Assembly: GCA_016935355.1 (NCBI GenBank)
Contig: JAFGRC010000024.1
Coordinates: 2,795-66,794 of the forward strand
Reading direction: 5' to 3'
From: Bacteroidales bacterium
Lineage (GTDB): Bacteria; Bacteroidota; Bacteroidia; Bacteroidales; UBA10428
Length of the DNA stretch: 64,000 bases
The position numbers and the translations under genes were made by a program. Below the pieces are notes generated by a model. That model was not told the DNA's origin and searched no databases. It saw only the letters and a program-made list of their open reading frames with translations. Within the stretch, counting starts at the first letter, position 1. The number at the start of each line of letters is the position of its first letter. This document shows positions 38,004 through 47,299 of the stretch, piece by piece.

Positions 38004-39356
38004 TCAGACAATACCCTGTGCAAGCATAGCATCCGCCACTTTTATAAATCCTCCGATATTAGCACCTATGACATAATTGACATAACCATTGCCATCACTT
38101 CCGTATTTCACGCAGGTTTCATGGATGTTGACCATGATCTGCTTCAGTCTCTGGTCGACTTCTTCCCTGTTCCAGGGCAGACGCATGGAGTTTTGCGTCA
38201 TTTCCAGTCCCGATACCGCAACACCACCGGCATTTGCAGCTTTACCGGGTCCGTAAAGTATTTTCGATCCGATGAATACTTCCACCGCTTCCGGTGTTGA
38301 CGGCATGTTTGCACCTTCAGAGACTGCAATGCATCCATTCCTGCAGAGCGTTTTTGCATCCGCTTCATTGATCTCATTTTGTGTGGCACAAGGAAATGCA
38401 ATATCACAGGGTATGTTCCAGGGTGTCTGTCCCTCAAAATATTTTACACCGTAGCGTTCGGAATATTCCCGGATCCTTCCCCTTTTGATGTTTTTCAATT
38501 CGAATACGAAGGTGAGTTTTTCCTTATCGATCCCGTCCGGATCAAATATATATCCTGATGAATCAGAAAGCGTGACGACTTTTGCTCCCAGCATGATGAG
38601 CTTCTCAGTGGCATATTGCGAGACATTGCCTGAACCGGAAACCACAGCTGTCTTACCCCTGATTTCCTCATTCCGTGTTTTCAGCATTTCCTCTGCAAAA
38701 TATACAGCACCATAACCGGTAGCTTCAGGTCTGATTACGCTGCCTCCCCACTCCAGTCCCTTGCCTGTAAGCACACCTGTAAATTCATTGCGAATTCTTT
38801 TATACTGGCCAAACAAGTAACCGATCTCCCTGCCCCCGACACCGATATCACCTGCAGGAACATCGGTATCCGGACCGACATGCCGCTGCAATTCGGTCAT
38901 GAAGCTCTGGCAAAACCGCATCACTTCATTGTCCGATTTACCCTTGGGATCAAAATCCGATCCGCCCTTGCCACCGCCCATAGGTAAGGTGGTGAGACTG
39001 TTCTTAAAAACCTGTTCAAAAGCAAGGAATTTGAGAATCCCGAGATTGACTGTCGGATGAAACCTGAGTCCCCCCTTGTACGGTCCGATTGCACTGTTCA
39101 TTTCAATACGGTATCCCCTGTTGATTTGTATCTCTCCGCTGTCATCAACCCACGGGACCCTGAAAATGATGATGCGCTCCGGTTCGCTGATCCGTTCCAG
39201 TATCTTCGCATGTTTATACTTTGGATGTTCATCAATAAAAGGCAAGAGGGATTCTATAACCTCCTGCACTGCCTGATGAAATTCTGATTCTCCGGGATTT
39301 TTGGCAATGATCTTTGCCATAAAGTCATTTATCTCAACATTCAATAAATCAGCCAT
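38004..39356 (-). CDS. gdhA: NADP-specific glutamate dehydrogenase
   Basis: [40 protein letters not shown]. Confidence 0.97.
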
Positions 39357-39555
39357 ATTATTATTCTTATAAGTAATTAACCGCTTATAAAACAGGAAAG
39401 CCGGTAACCTGCATACGATATTCAACCGATAATGCCGGCATTTGAAGGACAACCTCCTGTTTGTTCATGCAATAAAAATATCAACTTTTACACCACCTGA
39501 TATTCTGTTCCATGCAGATTCAGTAATTCACGTATCAGATTCAGTGTTTTTCGTA

Positions 39556-40209
39556 TTATATGTCTATTATATTGTTCCGGATCGCAAACTTTATCATGTC
39601 GACCGATGTTTTCAGGTTGAGCTTCTGCATGATATGATTCTTATGAGTCTCGACGGTACGGACACTTAGAAACAGTTTGTCCGCTATTTCCTTGTTTGTA
39701 AGACTGCTGCCCCACAATCTCAGGATCTCGATTTCACGGACGCTGAGGTTGCTGATATCAGCAGAACCATCATCACTTTTCAGTTTGTTTACATATTTGT
39801 TCAATAGCAAACTGGTAATGGACTTGCTGAAATAATCATGGCCGTTTCGCAAAGTATAAATTGCTTCTATCAGCTCATTCCGTTCCGTCTCTTTGGAGAG
39901 AAAACCTTTCGCACCGGCCTTAATGATTTTCAGTACCGTTTCTTCGTCACTGTGGACGGAAATGACCAGGATCATAACTTTCGGATGGGATATACCGACT
40001 TGCATCATCAGATTCAGCAGCTGAATTGAAAGAATATGCACATTTATGATCAGAACATTGATCTTCAAAATCATGAGCTGATCCAAAAGCTTGTTTTTTG
40101 AATCAGTCTGGAGCATGATTTCCATATCTTTTACATTGTTCAGCAATGAGCTGATGCCCTCCCGAACAAGCCTGTGCTCATCATAAACAGCCAGTGTAAT
40201 ATTCCCCAT
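39556..40209 (-). CDS. NarL/LuxR-family response regulator with atypical receiver
   Basis: C-terminal LSVRE...NKEIADKLFLSVRTVETH; VLIINV has Asn at the Asp position. Confidence 0.9.
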   Translation of the reverse strand: MGNITLAVYDEHRLVREGISSLLNNVKDMEIMLQTDSKNKLLDQLMILKINVLIINVHILSIQLLNLMMQVGISHPKVMILVISVHSDEETVLKIIKAGAKGFLSKETERNELIEAIYTLRNGHDYFSKSITSLLLNKYVNKLKSDDGSADISNLSVREIEILRLWGSSLTNKEIADKLFLSVRTVETHKNHIMQKLNLKTSVDMIKFAIRNNIIDI

Positions 40210-40215
40210 AACGCT

Positions 40216-44799: not shown

Positions 44800-44985
44800 T
44801 GATATGTTTTTTAATCAATATCCAAAATTACAAAACTGTCGGATATATTTTGTCATCCAGAGGATCAGAGAAACATCTCTTAAAGCAAAAAATGGGATGA
44901 GTGCACTCCGGGGTAAGGTTTAGTGCTGATGAAATGCAACGAGCAGCTTATGAAACCGAAAATTTCAAAAAGGATGTTGATTCCG

Positions 44986-46476
44986 TCAGATCCCGGATAA
45001 GTACCTGTGTATTGCAAATGCGGCCTTTCTTCCATCTCCCATGGCAGCAATAACAGTGGCACCACCCCTTACGATATCACCTCCTGCATAAAATCCTTCA
45101 ACATTTGCTTTCATCAGTTCTCCGCAAACTTCAATAGTACCGGAAGGAGTGACCTTAAGTTCGGGCATGTGCATTGATATTAAAGGATTGGGGGAAACCC
45201 CGATGCTGACAATTACCATATCTGCCTGGAGAGAATATTCCGAATCTTTGAGCGGTACCGGTCTGCACCGTCCCGATGCATCGGGCTCACCCAATTCCAT
45301 TCTGCGAAGTTTAATCCTGTTCACCCTTCCGTTTTCATCTGCAAGATATTCAACCGGTTCATTCAGGTTTAAAAATTCGACTCCCTCTTCCATGGCGTGC
45401 TTGATCTCTTCTTTTCTTGCAGGCATTTCATTAAAAGACCTCCGGTAGATGATCATTGCCCGTTCAGCACCCAGCCTTTTTGCCGTTCGAACGGAATCCA
45501 TGGCTGTATTTCCTCCGCCGATCACGGCTACATTTCTTCCATAAAACACAGGAGTGTCATAATCCTGTTTTGCTGCGCCCATCAGATTGATCCTTGTGAG
45601 ATATTCATTGGCAGACATGATGCCAACGTGATTTTCTCCGGGAATGTTCATAAACTTTGGTAATCCGGCACCACTGCCGATAAAGAAAGCTTTATAACCC
45701 GACTCTTTCAGATCATCATGCGACAATGTTTTACCGATGATGATATTTGTGTAGAACTTAACGCCTATCTTTTTCAGGTTGTCGATCTCAAATTCTATGA
45801 TATGATTCGGCAGCCTGAATTCAGGTATGCCATAACGCAACACTCCTCCCAGTTCGTGCAATGCTTCATAGACCGATACCTGATACCCGTAACGGGCAAG
45901 GTCACCTGCTGCTGCAATACCTGCGGGGCCCGATCCGACCACAGCCACTTTTACCTGTGATATTTTCCCGATTTCAGGAATATAAGTTGTACCGGATTCT
46001 CTTTCGTAATCTGCAACAAACCTTTCGAGATAACCGATTGCAACAGGTTCTTTATTCAGCTTATCAAAATAAATGCAATTCTTCTCACACTGAACCTCCT
46101 GCGGACAAACACGGCCGCAAATTGCAGGGAAAAGATTGCTTTGTTTGATGACCTGTGCAGATTTTAAAAAATCACCGGCCTCAATGTACTTTATGAATGT
46201 TGGTATATCAACACCGACCGGACAACCCTGTATGCAGGGCGGATTGGCACAATCCAGGCAACGCTGCGCCTCCTTTACGGCCTCAAAGACTGACAAACCC
46301 TTATTCACCTCGGTATTGCCCTTCAATCTTTCAATAGGATCTTCCATGGGCATCACGACCCTTTTGATCGCCATTCTTTCCTTTGCTGTCATCGATTTGC
46401 GCAGTTCTTTGCGCCACTCATCTCTTATCATAACAGGCTCAATGCTTAATTCCTTCATATTGATATCAATTGGCAA
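44986..46476 (-). CDS. nfnB: NADPH-dependent oxidoreductase, GltD-like (NfnB/SudA)
   Basis: EAQRCLDC..PPC..GCP, CGRVCPQE.QCE, GSGPAG, GGGNTAMD. Confidence 0.88.
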   Translation of the reverse strand: MPIDINMKELSIEPVMIRDEWRKELRKSMTAKERMAIKRVVMPMEDPIERLKGNTEVNKGLSVFEAVKEAQRCLDCANPPCIQGCPVGVDIPTFIKYIEAGDFLKSAQVIKQSNLFPAICGRVCPQEVQCEKNCIYFDKLNKEPVAIGYLERFVADYERESGTTYIPEIGKISQVKVAVVGSGPAGIAAAGDLARYGYQVSVYEALHELGGVLRYGIPEFRLPNHIIEFEIDNLKKIGVKFYTNIIIGKTLSHDDLKESGYKAFFIGSGAGLPKFMNIPGENHVGIMSANEYLTRINLMGAAKQDYDTPVFYGRNVAVIGGGNTAMDSVRTAKRLGAERAMIIYRRSFNEMPARKEEIKHAMEEGVEFLNLNEPVEYLADENGRVNRIKLRRMELGEPDASGRCRPVPLKDSEYSLQADMVIVSIGVSPNPLISMHMPELKVTPSGTIEVCGELMKANVEGFYAGGDIVRGGATVIAAMGDGRKAAFAIHRYLSGI

Positions 46477-47299
46477 CCTTTCCTTTCAGAAACTCCCCGT
46501 AATTATATTTCTCTTCTTTTTTGTATCCGGCGAGCCGGATAAGCAATTCATCAAAATCGACTTCATGAGCATTGAACTCAGGTCCGTCAATACATGCGAA
46601 TTTTCTTTGTCCTGCCACGGTAACCCTGCATGCCCCGCACATCCCCGTCCCATCTATCATAATTGTATTCAGACTGGCAATTGTGGGAATGTTGTACTTT
46701 TTCGTAAGCAAGCTGGTGTATTTCATCATAATGGCCGGACCAATGGTAACCGCCTTATGAATTGTTTCTCGCCGGATGATTTGCTCCATCCCTTCCGTGA
46801 TCAGTCCTTTCATGCCCTGACTGCCATCATCCGTCATCACCAGTAATTCATCGGAAAAAGCACGCATCTCTTTTTCGAGTATAACCAGCTCTTTTGTCCG
46901 GGCAGCCAATACCGTTACAATACGGTTGCCTGCTTCGTGAAATGCCTCAGCGATGGGTAAAAGCGGTGCTATTCCAACCCCGCCACCGGCACACAGTACG
47001 GTCCCGACTTTTTCAATGTGTGTGGGACGGCCCAGGGGACCGACAACATCGGTTACCGTTTCTCCGACTTTCAGACTCGCAATTTTATGACTGCTGACAC
47101 CAACAATCTGTACAATCAGCGAAATGGTTCCCTTCTCTGCATCCGATCCGGTTATTGTCAGCGGAATCCGTTCACCCTTCCGTCCTATTTTCACAATCAC
47201 AAAATTTCCGGGTTGTCTTTTTCTGGAAATCAGTGGCGCTTCAATTTCAAACCTGACAACATTCTTTCCAAGGTTTTCTTTTGCAATAACCTTATTCAT
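46466..47299 (-). CDS. nfnA: Ferredoxin-NADP reductase small subunit (NfnA/SudB)
   Basis: GERIPLTI, GPLG, GGGVG, DGTGMCGACR...CIDGPEF. Confidence 0.9.
   Translation of the reverse strand: MNKVIAKENLGKNVVRFEIEAPLISRKRQPGNFVIVKIGRKGERIPLTITGSDAEKGTISLIVQIVGVSSHKIASLKVGETVTDVVGPLGRPTHIEKVGTVLCAGGGVGIAPLLPIAEAFHEAGNRIVTVLAARTKELVILEKEMRAFSDELLVMTDDGSQGMKGLITEGMEQIIRRETIHKAVTIGPAIMMKYTSLLTKKYNIPTIASLNTIMIDGTGMCGACRVTVAGQRKFACIDGPEFNAHEVDFDELLIRLAGYKKEEKYNYGEFLKGKVAN

Follow-up and report, generated by a model that had tools for sequence, protein, structure and literature searches.

A GAF- and receiver-bearing ATP-grasp protein encoded between nfnAB-like genes and gdhA is a candidate His autokinase in a Bacteroidales bacterium

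In the nitrogen PTS, Enzyme I-Ntr (PtsP) fuses a GAF sensor to a phosphohistidine swivel protein; its TIM barrel loads the His with phosphate from PEP, and NPr then receives the phosphoryl group. Atypical NarL/LuxR-family response regulators that lack the acceptor Asp likewise form a recognised class. In Mycobacterium tuberculosis, VadK (Rv1127c) is a truncated PPDK that acts as a regulatory His autokinase; it is reported to autophosphorylate His422 from ATP/Mg and to bind enzymes of the pathway under its control (PMC13400623).

Here we analyse a locus from a Bacteroidales bacterium (GCA_016935355.1, JAFGRC010000024.1, 2,795 to 66,794), with all coordinates given in the 64,000-nt window, the whole stretch of DNA under study (Table 1). 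Five co-oriented genes on the minus strand encode, in order, an nfnA-like and an nfnB-like subunit, a giant protein, a LuxR/NarL-type regulator and gdhA, exactly as the original prediction had arranged them. The nfnA-like ORF, listed to 47332 but with a likely start at Met12 (47299), scores 381.7 bits against its family model (cut-off 220), and the nfnB/GltD-like gene, which shares an 11-bp overlap with it, scores 565 bits (cut-off 472). The gdhA ORF was called from a TTG at 39452, but translation probably starts at its Met33, encoded by the ATG at 39356; the product scores 774 bits (cut-off 536), with the alignment starting at residue 40. With gaps of 186 bp between nfnB and the giant gene and 199 bp between the regulator and gdhA, the five genes may or may not form one operon.

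Table 1 Features of the locus in window coordinates, listed along the minus strand
Feature	Position	Strand	Basis or detail
nfnA-like FAD/NAD(P)-binding subunit, sulfide/dihydroorotate dehydrogenase-like	46466..47299	-	NF004862
nfnB/GltD-like NADPH-dependent oxidoreductase subunit	44986..46476	-	TIGR01316; Fer4_20, Pyr_redox_2
Giant 1527-aa sensor/receiver/ATP-grasp/His-domain protein	40216..44799 (including stop codon)	-	ORF and Pfam
Four tandem GAF-fold repeats	43237..44784	-	residues 6-137, 134-265, 262-393, 390-521
Pseudo-receiver REC1, about residues 560-690	42730..43122	-	Met629 at acceptor position
Intact receiver REC2, about residues 711-850	42250..42669	-	E718, D719, D789, S823, K842
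DUF5752-like segment, residues 851-975	41875..42249	-	PF19027, weak
PPDK_N-type ATP-grasp, residues 976-1342	40774..41874	-	Pfam PF01326, E 2.9e-33
C-terminal domain, probably swivel-type, residues 1345-1527	40219..40767	-	AF2 model and VIA
LuxR/NarL-type regulator, 217 aa	39556..40209	-	GerE 64.6 bits, Response_reg 52 bits
gdhA, NADP-specific glutamate dehydrogenase	38004..39356	-	NF006929

The giant protein, whose stop-to-stop frame is 1532 aa, comprises from N to C terminus four GAF-fold repeats, a pseudo-receiver, an intact receiver, a DUF5752-like segment, a PPDK_N ATP-grasp and a 183-aa C-terminal domain. A Pfam scan lists four families only, with the PEP/pyruvate barrel, HisKA and HATPase_c all absent, in agreement with the original prediction. 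The four tandem GAF-like repeats that it had proposed, about 128 aa each with repeat 1 the most divergent, are likewise real and have a GAF fold by structure comparison, though they lack a Pfam GAF match even at E≤10. Repeat 3 was modelled by AF2 at pLDDT 79.8, Foldseek returned GAF matches, and VIA gave Z scores of up to 12.6, with 50 chains at Z≥8 that are nearly all GAF and include the GAF domains of NifA and PtsP (3trc, Z 11.4).

In the case of the "receiver-like domains", two are present; the first is degenerate, and the second, as the prediction had missed, is intact, with all five catalytic residues. REC1 is weak in Pfam Response_reg (23.7-28.1 bits, cut-off 30.2), matches response regulators in a PDB profile search (3hv2, E 2.1e-6) and has a nearly invariant M629 across 63 sequences; 32 of 38 diverse rows carry M, T, F or L at this position, the four most frequent residues, which do not include Asp. 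In REC2, by comparison, the 63 sequences all keep E718, D789, S823 and K842, with D719 at least 90% conserved, while D789 (codon 42433-42435) is kept in 34 of the 38 diverse rows. Since REC2 is intact, the giant protein is formally a response-regulator-type protein, and it may be driven by a separate histidine kinase or by its own His.

The segment that follows weakly resembles DUF5752/ORFY of Thermoproteus tenax (PF19027; 4cso), a likeness it has in common with 63 family counterparts, all of which match PF19027 at E≤1 (best 7e-10). The segment encoded in the window aligns to roughly half of the PF19027 model (E 0.0041, 16.9 bits, below the cut-off of 23), its best PDB sequence match is 4cso ORFY (E 0.015), and S905, W907, R911 and E913 are invariant across the family. 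True DUF5752 proteins, unlike this segment, are small and stand-alone. The one in this genome adjoins a TreT trehalose synthase.

A PPDK/PEP-synthase ATP-grasp had also been predicted, and both its Pfam match and its conserved motifs bear this out: it carries GGK 977-979, R1071-S-S, E1077-D1078, Q1144, E1317, E1319 and Q1338, and its nucleotide-binding motifs are at least 95% conserved in 144 rows. In a PDB profile search, the nearest solved sequence relative is the ATP-grasp of rifampin phosphotransferase (RPH; 5hv6, E 1.6e-12).

The C-terminal domain was modelled by AF2 with a pLDDT of 94.6 and a pTM of 0.91. It carries the predicted GSHFFHN motif, whose first His (His1461) falls precisely at the foreseen codon (40417-40419) and, as regards the conservation on which the prediction depended, is 99% conserved in 144 rows (143 diverse relatives) and invariant in alignments of 76 and 64 rows; GRWG 1420-1423, E1446 and S1457 are equally conserved. 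In the model, a strand (model residues 97-105) leads through a Gly/Ser loop into a helix (116-124) whose N-terminus bears His1461, the place of the catalytic His in PPDK. The comparison with PEP-utiliser mobile domains, proposed as a check, gave best matches to PPDK and RPH, albeit without PF00391 homology: the best VIA rows were the PPDK carrier 2fm4 (Z 6.5), RPH 5hv1 residues 756-866, the PK C-terminal domain 2e28 and maize PPDK 1vbg (each Z 6.3), all below the Z of 8 at which, by the tool's notes, a match stands out; unrelated swivelling-fold domains (chaperonin apical, LdcA, DRTGG) reach Z 5-6.2. These four, the best of 48,161 chains, comprise phosphohistidine swivel domains and their pyruvate-kinase homolog, with 106-122 residues aligned, and on repeat inspection seven of the nine top rows were of these kinds. 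Pfam gave no match to PF00391 at E≤10, the PDB profile search of the giant protein matched only the ATP-grasp and receivers, hhalign against PPDK swivel domains returned E 0.06 and a probability of 0.9%, and Foldseek on the model found nothing at E≤0.001. Judged on the model, the domain has a swivelling beta/beta/alpha fold and is probably of the phosphohistidine-carrier type.

The giant protein has a PPDK_N-type ATP-grasp in common with RPH (5hv1, 5hv6, 5fbs), PEP synthase and PPDK, and its putative swivel domain superposes on those of RPH and PPDK, with a conserved [ST]-His at a helix N-terminus. Unlike RPH and PPDK, it has no acceptor-binding domain (neither a rifampin-binding domain nor a PEP/pyruvate barrel), its His domain of about 183 aa contains extra elements and has GRWG and GSHFF as its own motifs, and receiver and GAF domains are fused N-terminally. 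Like PtsP, it has a nitrogen-related context and appears to pair GAF input with a His carrier of swivel type, but loading of the His would here fall to the ATP-grasp, and there is no known HPr-like acceptor. The likeness to VadK is one of domain make-up: both have an ATP-binding and a His-carrying domain without the PEP/pyruvate barrel, His autophosphorylation being proven for VadK and proposed here. VadK is about 50 kDa, is described as derived directly from PPDK and is free of receiver, GAF and DUF5752-like parts, whereas the giant protein has a His domain without detectable PF00391 similarity, a proposed sensor/receiver gating and a glutamate/2-oxoglutarate pathway beside it.

At roughly even odds (about 0.5), we read the giant protein as an ATP-dependent His autokinase like VadK, gated by its sensor and receiver domains and controlling the 2-oxoglutarate/glutamate/NADPH node. 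On the model of PPDK, PEP synthase, RPH and VadK, the ATP-grasp would transfer a phosphoryl or pyrophosphoryl group from ATP to His1461, which sits on the mobile C-terminal domain. Because a third, substrate-binding catalytic domain is absent, the phosphorylated state would serve regulation rather than bulk metabolism, acting on or with GDH, KorAB and Nfn-type enzymes; alternatively, the phosphoryl group might go to the protein's own Asp789. This activity would be gated by metabolites through the GAF domains and by phosphorylation through the intact receiver. Of the original proposal, the anatomy, the His conservation and the gdh/NADPH linkage are supported, kinase activity and GDH as its target are hypotheses, and the swivel assignment has a middling structural score.

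The family to which it belongs is large (3115 clusters at 50% identity) and uncharacterised. Its shared architecture runs from a pseudo-receiver and a receiver through a DUF5752-like segment to the PPDK-type ATP-grasp and the swivel-type His domain, and the giant protein adds four N-terminal GAF sensor domains to this plan. A literature search found no activity, ligand or partner reported for any member. In a survey of 64 related species-level loci, GDH was encoded within three genes on either side of the family member in 26 (17 divergent, 7 co-oriented and 2 convergent), which upholds the gdh linkage claimed for homologs; its absence from that range in the other 38 counts against our reading. 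KorA and KorB were found in 12 and 13 loci, Nfn- or Stn-like NAD(P)H enzymes in about 10, and at least one of GDH, KorA/KorB or Nfn/Stn-like enzymes in 39, with the recurrent neighbours entirely absent from 10. A second family member in the same genome lies 41 bp after korAB.

The regulator begins, as predicted, 6 bp past the giant-protein stop codon and has Asn (Asn56, codon 40042-40044) at the phospho-acceptor position. Asp is missing there from 14 of 15 regulators encoded beside family members (7 N, 3 V, 2 E and one each of I, S and D) and from all 120 closest homologs (102 N, 12 V and 6 I), while the subfamily keeps D10, E11 and S84 and shows strong conservation of AIYTLRNG(Y/H)DY just past its receiver. 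It resembles the atypical NarL/LuxR class in joining a receiver fold without acceptor Asp to a GerE helix-turn-helix but, unlike that class at large, it is fixed beside GAF-bearing family members: it occurs in 14 of the 64 loci, all 14 being among the 52 with a GAF-bearing member and none among the 12 without GAF, the co-occurrence that the original prediction had looked for. That no more than 14 of 64 loci carry it counts against our reading. Since the acceptor varies (N, V, E, I, S), phosphorylation at that site is unlikely. The regulator could be a dedicated partner of the GAF-rich subfamily, probably setting gdhA and/or nfnAB transcription without phosphorylation at the canonical site.

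A possible reading, although we find it distinctly less probable than the autokinase, is that the protein acts on small molecules, as a regulated dikinase or phosphotransferase like RPH or glucan-water dikinase. Phosphorylated His1461 would then pass its phosphate to a metabolite bound elsewhere in the protein, for instance by the DUF5752-like segment or an ATP-grasp insertion, with receivers and GAF domains as an on/off switch only. The nearest solved ATP-grasp sequence relatives are indeed small-molecule enzymes (RPH, PEP synthases), the weak NCBIfam matches are PEP synthase, PigC/RedH and RPH, the invariant Ser, Trp, Arg and Glu of the DUF5752-like segment could form a binding site, and an insertion has room, since the Pfam ATP-grasp match spans 367 residues for 306 profile positions. 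However, no domain similar to known acceptor-binding ones turned up in Pfam, some genomes without the DUF5752-like segment in cis have stand-alone ORFs of 581-603 aa that comprise just the module, and the neighbouring enzymes already give a complete route to glutamate and suggest no extra substrate.

We give a little less weight still to a self-contained His-to-Asp relay, with the ATP-grasp and swivel domain in place of a hybrid histidine kinase's HisKA/HATPase, loading His1461 for transfer to Asp789 in cis or across a dimer, and with output through binding to another protein, such as a tandem paralog or the Asp-less regulator. The complete catalytic set of REC2 and the absence of a histidine kinase gene among the locus genes in Pfam would fit such a relay, as would the mutual exclusion of the regulator (14 loci) and the tandem paralog (22 loci), as if they were alternative partners. 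But module-only family members without any receiver exist, so the His domain must serve another use there, and Hpt-like and output domains are absent from the giant protein.

It is unlikely that the ATP-grasp is a ligase or nucleotidyl-transferase, with His1461 catalytic or structural and the C-terminal domain simply of a common swivel fold. The lack of PF00391 sequence similarity, the Z under 8 and the conservation of GRWG, E1446 and S1457 as strong as that of the His all fit that case. Against it, the ATP-grasp belongs to the PPDK_N type in particular, of which, to our knowledge, every studied example works via phospho-His, and a His-bearing swivel-fold domain directly after it fits that logic. 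Finally, although some relatives are named "PEP/pyruvate-binding domain-containing protein" or "phosphoenolpyruvate synthase/pyruvate phosphate dikinase", the idea that the giant protein is a mis-described ordinary PEP synthase or PPDK is refuted by its domain content, with neither PEP-utilizers_C barrel nor PF00391 found in it, NCBIfam PEP-synthase models reaching 17-56 bits against cut-offs of 598-1063, and a separate 911-aa PPDK-sized protein with PF00391 present in the genome.

If the autokinase reading holds, the giant protein and its Asp-less regulator, set between NADPH-supply genes and gdhA, would point to an unstudied form of nitrogen-assimilation control in Bacteroidota.

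The original prediction described five co-oriented genes, nfnA-nfnB-(1,527 aa)-narL-gdhA, with the regulator 6 bp downstream of the giant protein. ORF listing, translation, and Pfam and NCBIfam scans bear out this same-strand order, and the coordinates place 6 bp between the stop codon of the giant and the start of the regulator. The nfnB-like and nfnA-like genes overlap by 11 bp, and the remaining intergenic gaps, of 186 bp between nfnB and the giant and 199 bp between the regulator and gdhA, make it possible that all five genes form one operon, with co-transcription still a conjecture. 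The Nfn pair carries Fer4_20, Pyr_redox_2 and DHODB_Fe-S_bind domains and, with both NCBIfam models above cut-off, has the domain composition of an NfnAB/SudAB-type NADPH oxidoreductase, which is its predicted activity; the gdhA product likewise combines ELFV dehydrogenase domains with a match to the equivalog model of NADP-specific glutamate dehydrogenase (GDH). Mechanical ORF calling started gdhA at a TTG (39452) and nfnA at a GTG (47332). Since the family models align only from the downstream ATGs at 39356 and 47299, these are likely to be the true starts. In the 186 bp that precede the giant gene (44800-44985), TAATTTTG lies about 25 nt 5' of the ATG and fits the Bacteroidota -7 promoter element, TAnnTTTG, so that the giant gene may have a promoter of its own. 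Elsewhere in the window, positions 36157-37269 (+) encode a 370-aa protein with TrmO_N, FmdE and a DksA/TraR-type zinc finger, an unusual fusion.

Genes of the nfn-giant-gdhA locus, with window coordinates
Feature	Position	Strand	Evidence
NfnA/SudB-like subunit	46466-47299	-	NF004862, 381.7 bits (cut-off 220)
NfnB/GltD-like subunit	44986-46476	-	TIGR01316, 565 bits (cut-off 472)
Giant protein, 1527 aa	40216-44799	-	ORF listing, translation, Pfam/NCBIfam scans
LuxR/NarL-type regulator, 217 aa	39556-40209	-	GerE 64.6 bits, Response_reg 52 bits
NADP-specific glutamate dehydrogenase, gdhA	38004-39356	-	NF006929, 774 bits (cut-off 536); PF00208, PF02812

Taken together, the giant's parts most likely make up a phosphotransfer enzyme that is regulated and has no domain for a metabolic acceptor. 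The predicted PPDK/PEP-synthase ATP-grasp domain is present at residues 976-1342 (PF01326, E 2.9e-33; 116 bits, cut-off 27), and its GGK, RSS..ED, Q, E.E and LQ motifs are at least 95% conserved in 144 diverse rows. Of the 150 best representatives of clusters at 50% identity, 143 are among these rows; the other seven were excluded for incomplete coverage of the module formed by the ATP-grasp and the C-terminal His domain. The closest solved sequence relative of the domain is rifampin phosphotransferase (RPH; 5hv6, E 1.6e-12). As had been claimed, Pfam detects no PEP/pyruvate barrel (PF02896), nor any other acceptor-binding domain, and neither HisKA/DHp nor HATPase_c; by domain content the giant would fall outside the histidine kinases, and it falls short of full membership in the PEP-utilising dikinases on the third, acceptor-binding domain. 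The same domain content excludes an ordinary PEP synthase or PPDK: the barrel is absent, NCBIfam PEP-synthase and RPH models give the giant 17-56 bits against cut-offs of 598-1063, and the genome encodes a separate 911-aa protein with PF00391. A rival reading makes the giant a regulated small-molecule dikinase, which would suit the kinship of its ATP-grasp domain with RPH and would have to do without a recognisable acceptor-binding domain.

Upstream of this module, residues 6-521 consist of four tandem repeats of about 128 aa each. When searched for GAF with Pfam, no model matched any repeat, even at E<=10, and a language-model atlas gave leads only (0.88-0.89). The repeat alignment (A4) comprised 70 repeats, three of them the window's own and 67 selected by score at related loci; repeats below 100 bits or 115 profile positions were excluded. 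Comparison of an AlphaFold model of repeat 3 (pLDDT 79.8, pTM 0.75) with 48,161 PDB representatives returned 50 chains at Z>=8. The best of these was a PAS domain of DosP (Z 12.6, rmsd 3.2, 123 aligned), and nearly all the others were GAF domains, among them 3cit (Z 12.2), Nlh1 (11.6), PtsP (11.4) and NifA (10.5); Foldseek, run on the same model, also pointed to GAF. Judged from the model, the repeats thus have a GAF fold, so the label "GAF-like" given to them by the original prediction was right at the level of fold, although Pfam GAF sequence models do not recognise them.

Receiver-like domains follow, as predicted; there are two, REC1 at about residues 560-690 and REC2 at about 711-850, assigned from weak Pfam Response_reg matches together with a profile match to solved response regulators (3hv2, E 2.1e-6). 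For Response_reg the giant scores 23.7-28.1, below the cut-off of 30.2, and a paralog in the same genome passes it with 33.5. REC1 has no acceptor Asp: the position is held by Met629, which is near-invariant across 63 close relatives, and in 38 more diverse rows its four commonest residues, M, T, F and L, with Asp not among them, account for 32. REC2, on the other hand, has the full catalytic set, with E718, D789, S823 and K842 invariant and D719 kept in at least 90% of 63 sequences, and with D789 retained in 34 of the 38 diverse rows; by these residues it qualifies as a response-regulator receiver, having the acidic pair, the acceptor Asp, the Ser/Thr and the Lys. The 38-row set excludes 113 of the 150 representatives, which are without the roughly 440 residues upstream of the module, and two further alignments (A5 and A6) each omit one or two of the 64 related loci, where matches were too short. 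With an intact receiver and a conserved His in one chain, the giant could also be a self-contained His-to-Asp relay, a second rival, in which the ATP-grasp and the His domain would take the place of HisKA/HATPase.

Between the receivers and the ATP-grasp, residues 851-975 are a weak relative of DUF5752. All 63 family segments match PF19027 at E<=1 (best 7e-10), the giant's own segment at E 0.0041 (16.9 bits, below the cut-off of 23). Among solved structures, ORFY of Thermoproteus tenax (4cso, E 0.015) comes closest in sequence. The segment has invariant Ser, Trp, Arg and Glu residues. A genome search for DUF5752 in 14 control genomes found a match in Sulfolobus only, and the same search missed the giant itself, so that it carries no information on Bacteroides thetaiotaomicron. 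The giant's genome also encodes, on contig C15, a stand-alone DUF5752 protein of 218 aa (L088:1474-2130, -; PF19027 E 3.4e-79), whose gene overlaps that of a TreT-type trehalose synthase (L088:221-1477, -) by 4 bp. ORFY and TreT of T. tenax are paired in the same way. DUF5752 may be an enzyme-partner module; residues 851-975 of the giant could then well act as an adaptor.

The His codon singled out by the original prediction (40417-40419) indeed encodes the first His of GSHFFHN, His1461, and the conservation on which the proposal was staked holds, the residue being identical in 99% of the 144 diverse rows and without exception in two further alignments, of 76 and 64 sequences; the second His of the motif alternates with Gln. 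The C-terminal 183 aa match no Pfam family at E<=10, with two chance-level matches only; a PDB profile search built on 137 sequences matched the ATP-grasp and the receivers and not this domain; and hhalign against PPDK swivel domains, taken from nine relatives as well as this genome, reached only E 0.06 (probability 0.9%) and misaligned the His by two columns. Swivel homology is thus unsupported by sequence. Modelled alone from a 76-row alignment, the domain reached pLDDT 94.6 and pTM 0.91. Foldseek returned nothing for this model at E<=0.001, its top rows being glycosylases at rmsd 15, which are meaningless. In an independent search of 48,161 chains four phosphohistidine-type domains ranked first: the PPDK phosphoryl-carrier domain 2fm4 (Z 6.5, rmsd 3.8, 115/128 residues), residues 756-866 of rifampin phosphotransferase (Z 6.3, rmsd 3.2, 109 aligned), the PPDK-like C-terminal domain of Geobacillus pyruvate kinase 2e28 (Z 6.3, rmsd 3.0, 106 aligned) and residues 376-511 of maize PPDK (Z 6.3, rmsd 3.6, 122 aligned). 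Enzyme I came further down the same list (Z 5.1, 4.7 and 4.5). When Foldseek's top 999 chains were re-scored, PPDK, pyruvate-kinase C-terminal and RPH domains made up seven of the nine best (Z 5.2-6.5). The other rows were chaperonin apical domains, LdcA/MccF, aconitase domain 4, RraA and PA/TfR apical domains, all of which, we believe, share the SCOP "swivelling beta/beta/alpha" fold.

In the model, strand 97-105 and a Gly/Ser-rich loop precede helix 116-124, and His1461 (model residue 117) lies at the N-terminal end of this helix, the position of the catalytic His in PPDK and Enzyme I. In the structural check proposed at the outset PPDK/RPH carriers were the best matches, but at Z values of only 6.3-6.5, short of the level of 8 under which the search tool warns of common arrangements. 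Given these values and the non-significant profile-profile comparison, the C-terminal domain is probably, and only probably, a swivel-type phosphohistidine carrier. A third and less likely rival, an ATP-grasp ligase whose conserved His is no phosphate carrier, could draw on the sub-threshold Z values and has the PPDK_N type of the ATP-grasp and the domain order against it.

The module matches at least 7996 proteins. Counted as clusters at 50% identity, the matches number at least 3115, and 738 of them reach E<=1e-30. Our literature search found no paper on the family. Its commonest members are about 990 aa long and consist of two receivers, the DUF5752-like segment, ATP-grasp and His domain, without GAF. 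Among 301 sampled genomes of the phylum the module occurs in 63, and in 51 of 144 genera; a given family has it in all of its sampled genomes or in none (16/16 and 14/14, for example, as against 0/63 and 0/49). Module-only ORFs of 581-603 aa, with ATP-grasp and His domain, also occur. In eight genomes (G141, G205, G149, G213, G125, G077, G061 and G109) they lie 1-3 kb from distant relatives of about 1065 aa with 27-30% identity, in which the match stops about 45 residues short of the C-terminus; this is a further conserved pairing in the family.

Neighbourhoods were counted within three genes of the focal family member at 64 related loci from different species, at which that member has 0, 1, 2, 3 or 4 GAF repeats in 12, 35, 7, 6 and 4 cases, respectively. 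GDH lies nearby at 26 of the 64 (17 divergent upstream, 7 co-oriented downstream, 2 convergent), as against a chance expectation of well under one, given one or two gdh genes per few thousand. That GDH occurs in three orientations makes it less likely that a single arrangement was simply inherited, although these species are related to one another. Three loci (L003, L043 and L062) repeat the window's order giant-regulator-gdhA. Other recurrent neighbours are a tandem paralog of about 990 aa (22/64), the Asp-less regulator (14/64), KorB and KorA of the 2-oxoacid:ferredoxin oxidoreductase type (13/64 and 12/64), an Asp/Glu racemase (11/64), NuoE/NuoF-like proteins with GltD fusions (6/64) and NfnA (4/64). 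At least one of GDH, Kor and Nfn/Stn-like enzymes is found at 39 loci, and 10 have no recurrent neighbour at all. The giant's own genome contains a second family member, a 995-aa protein without GAF, on contig C58, where the locus (L067:3825-9744, -) places it 41 bp downstream of korA-korB (617 aa, POR and POR_N; 343 aa, TPP_enzyme_C) with an Asp/Glu racemase upstream. This racemase-korA-korB-member array is present at 10-12 other loci, and in one Bacteroides MAG racemase, korA, korB, members of 1169 aa and 1001 aa and gdh are all co-oriented.

The regulator combines a receiver (52 bits) with a GerE helix-turn-helix (64.6 bits), the architecture of NarL/LuxR proteins, and has Asn56 (codon 40042-40044) at the phosphoacceptor, the Asn that had been read there from the sequence. 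Among 15 family-adjacent regulators, from the window and 14 loci, seven have N at this position, three V, two E, and one each I, S and D. The 120 closest homologs, which keep D10, E11 and S84, comprise 102 with N, 12 with V and 6 with I, and not one has Asp. Such free variation suggests that the position is no site of chemistry, and by its residues the protein classes as a pseudo-receiver protein. The expected co-occurrence of the GAF-extended form with the Asp-less regulator stood in that the regulator is found only beside GAF-bearing members (14/52 loci against 0/12 without GAF, and 7 of the 10 with three or four repeats), but it extends to just those 14 of 64 loci. Regulator and tandem paralog never occur at the same locus, as though the GAF-bearing protein had either the one or the other for a partner; this exclusion fails genome-wide, since the giant's genome has the regulator in the window and the 995-aa member elsewhere. 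A complex prediction with residues 521-975, the C-terminal domain and the regulator (score 0.00, mark 0.32) speaks neither for nor against binding.

In its general design the giant would work like a dikinase-derived regulator. The closest functional precedent is VadK of M. tuberculosis, a PPDK minus the barrel that autophosphorylates on His422 with ATP/Mg and binds methylcitrate-cycle enzymes (PMC13400623). VadK and the giant have only their architecture in common, an ATP-grasp and a His domain without the barrel. With RPH, PEP synthase and PPDK the giant shares the ATP-grasp and probably also the carrier fold, and with PtsP the pairing of a GAF domain and a swivel His, there in nitrogen signalling. 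The family differs from all of these in its receiver and GAF gating, in having a DUF5752-like segment, in a His domain that shows no sequence similarity to PF00391, and in its genomic partners.

Taken together, these observations lead us to propose that the ATP-grasp domain would load His1461 under the control of the GAF domains and the intact receiver, and that the phosphorylated giant would then regulate the enzymes of glutamate synthesis from ammonium, NADPH and 2-oxoglutarate derived from succinyl-CoA, either directly or via Asp789 and partner proteins; the Asp-less regulator would be the transcriptional arm in the GAF-rich subfamily. Beyond the domain assignments, these steps are what we infer. 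We put at about one in four the chance that this is a new signalling kinase, with a swivel His loaded by ATP-grasp and with 2-oxoglutarate, glutamine or NADPH sensed by GAF, that switches GDH, and perhaps KorAB/Nfn, covalently or allosterically. Work by Yamamoto and colleagues in 1987 is reported to have found GDH inactivated reversibly in vivo in Bacteroides, and the new-kinase reading, if true, would explain such older observations.

GDH is a main entry point of ammonium into Bacteroidota metabolism, and little is understood of the way in which its activity is adjusted to the available 2-oxoglutarate and NADPH. Here, a very large family whose parts are those of a regulated phosphotransfer enzyme is fixed beside gdh, korAB and NADPH-generating enzymes. 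The idea already has a precedent, since VadK (published 2026) shows that dikinase-derived regulators exist. Were the family a His-carrier kinase gated by GAF and receiver domains, it would represent a third design of bacterial signalling kinase, besides the HisKA/HATPase and Hanks types, and would open a direct way to manipulate how Bacteroidota of gut and sediment assimilate nitrogen.
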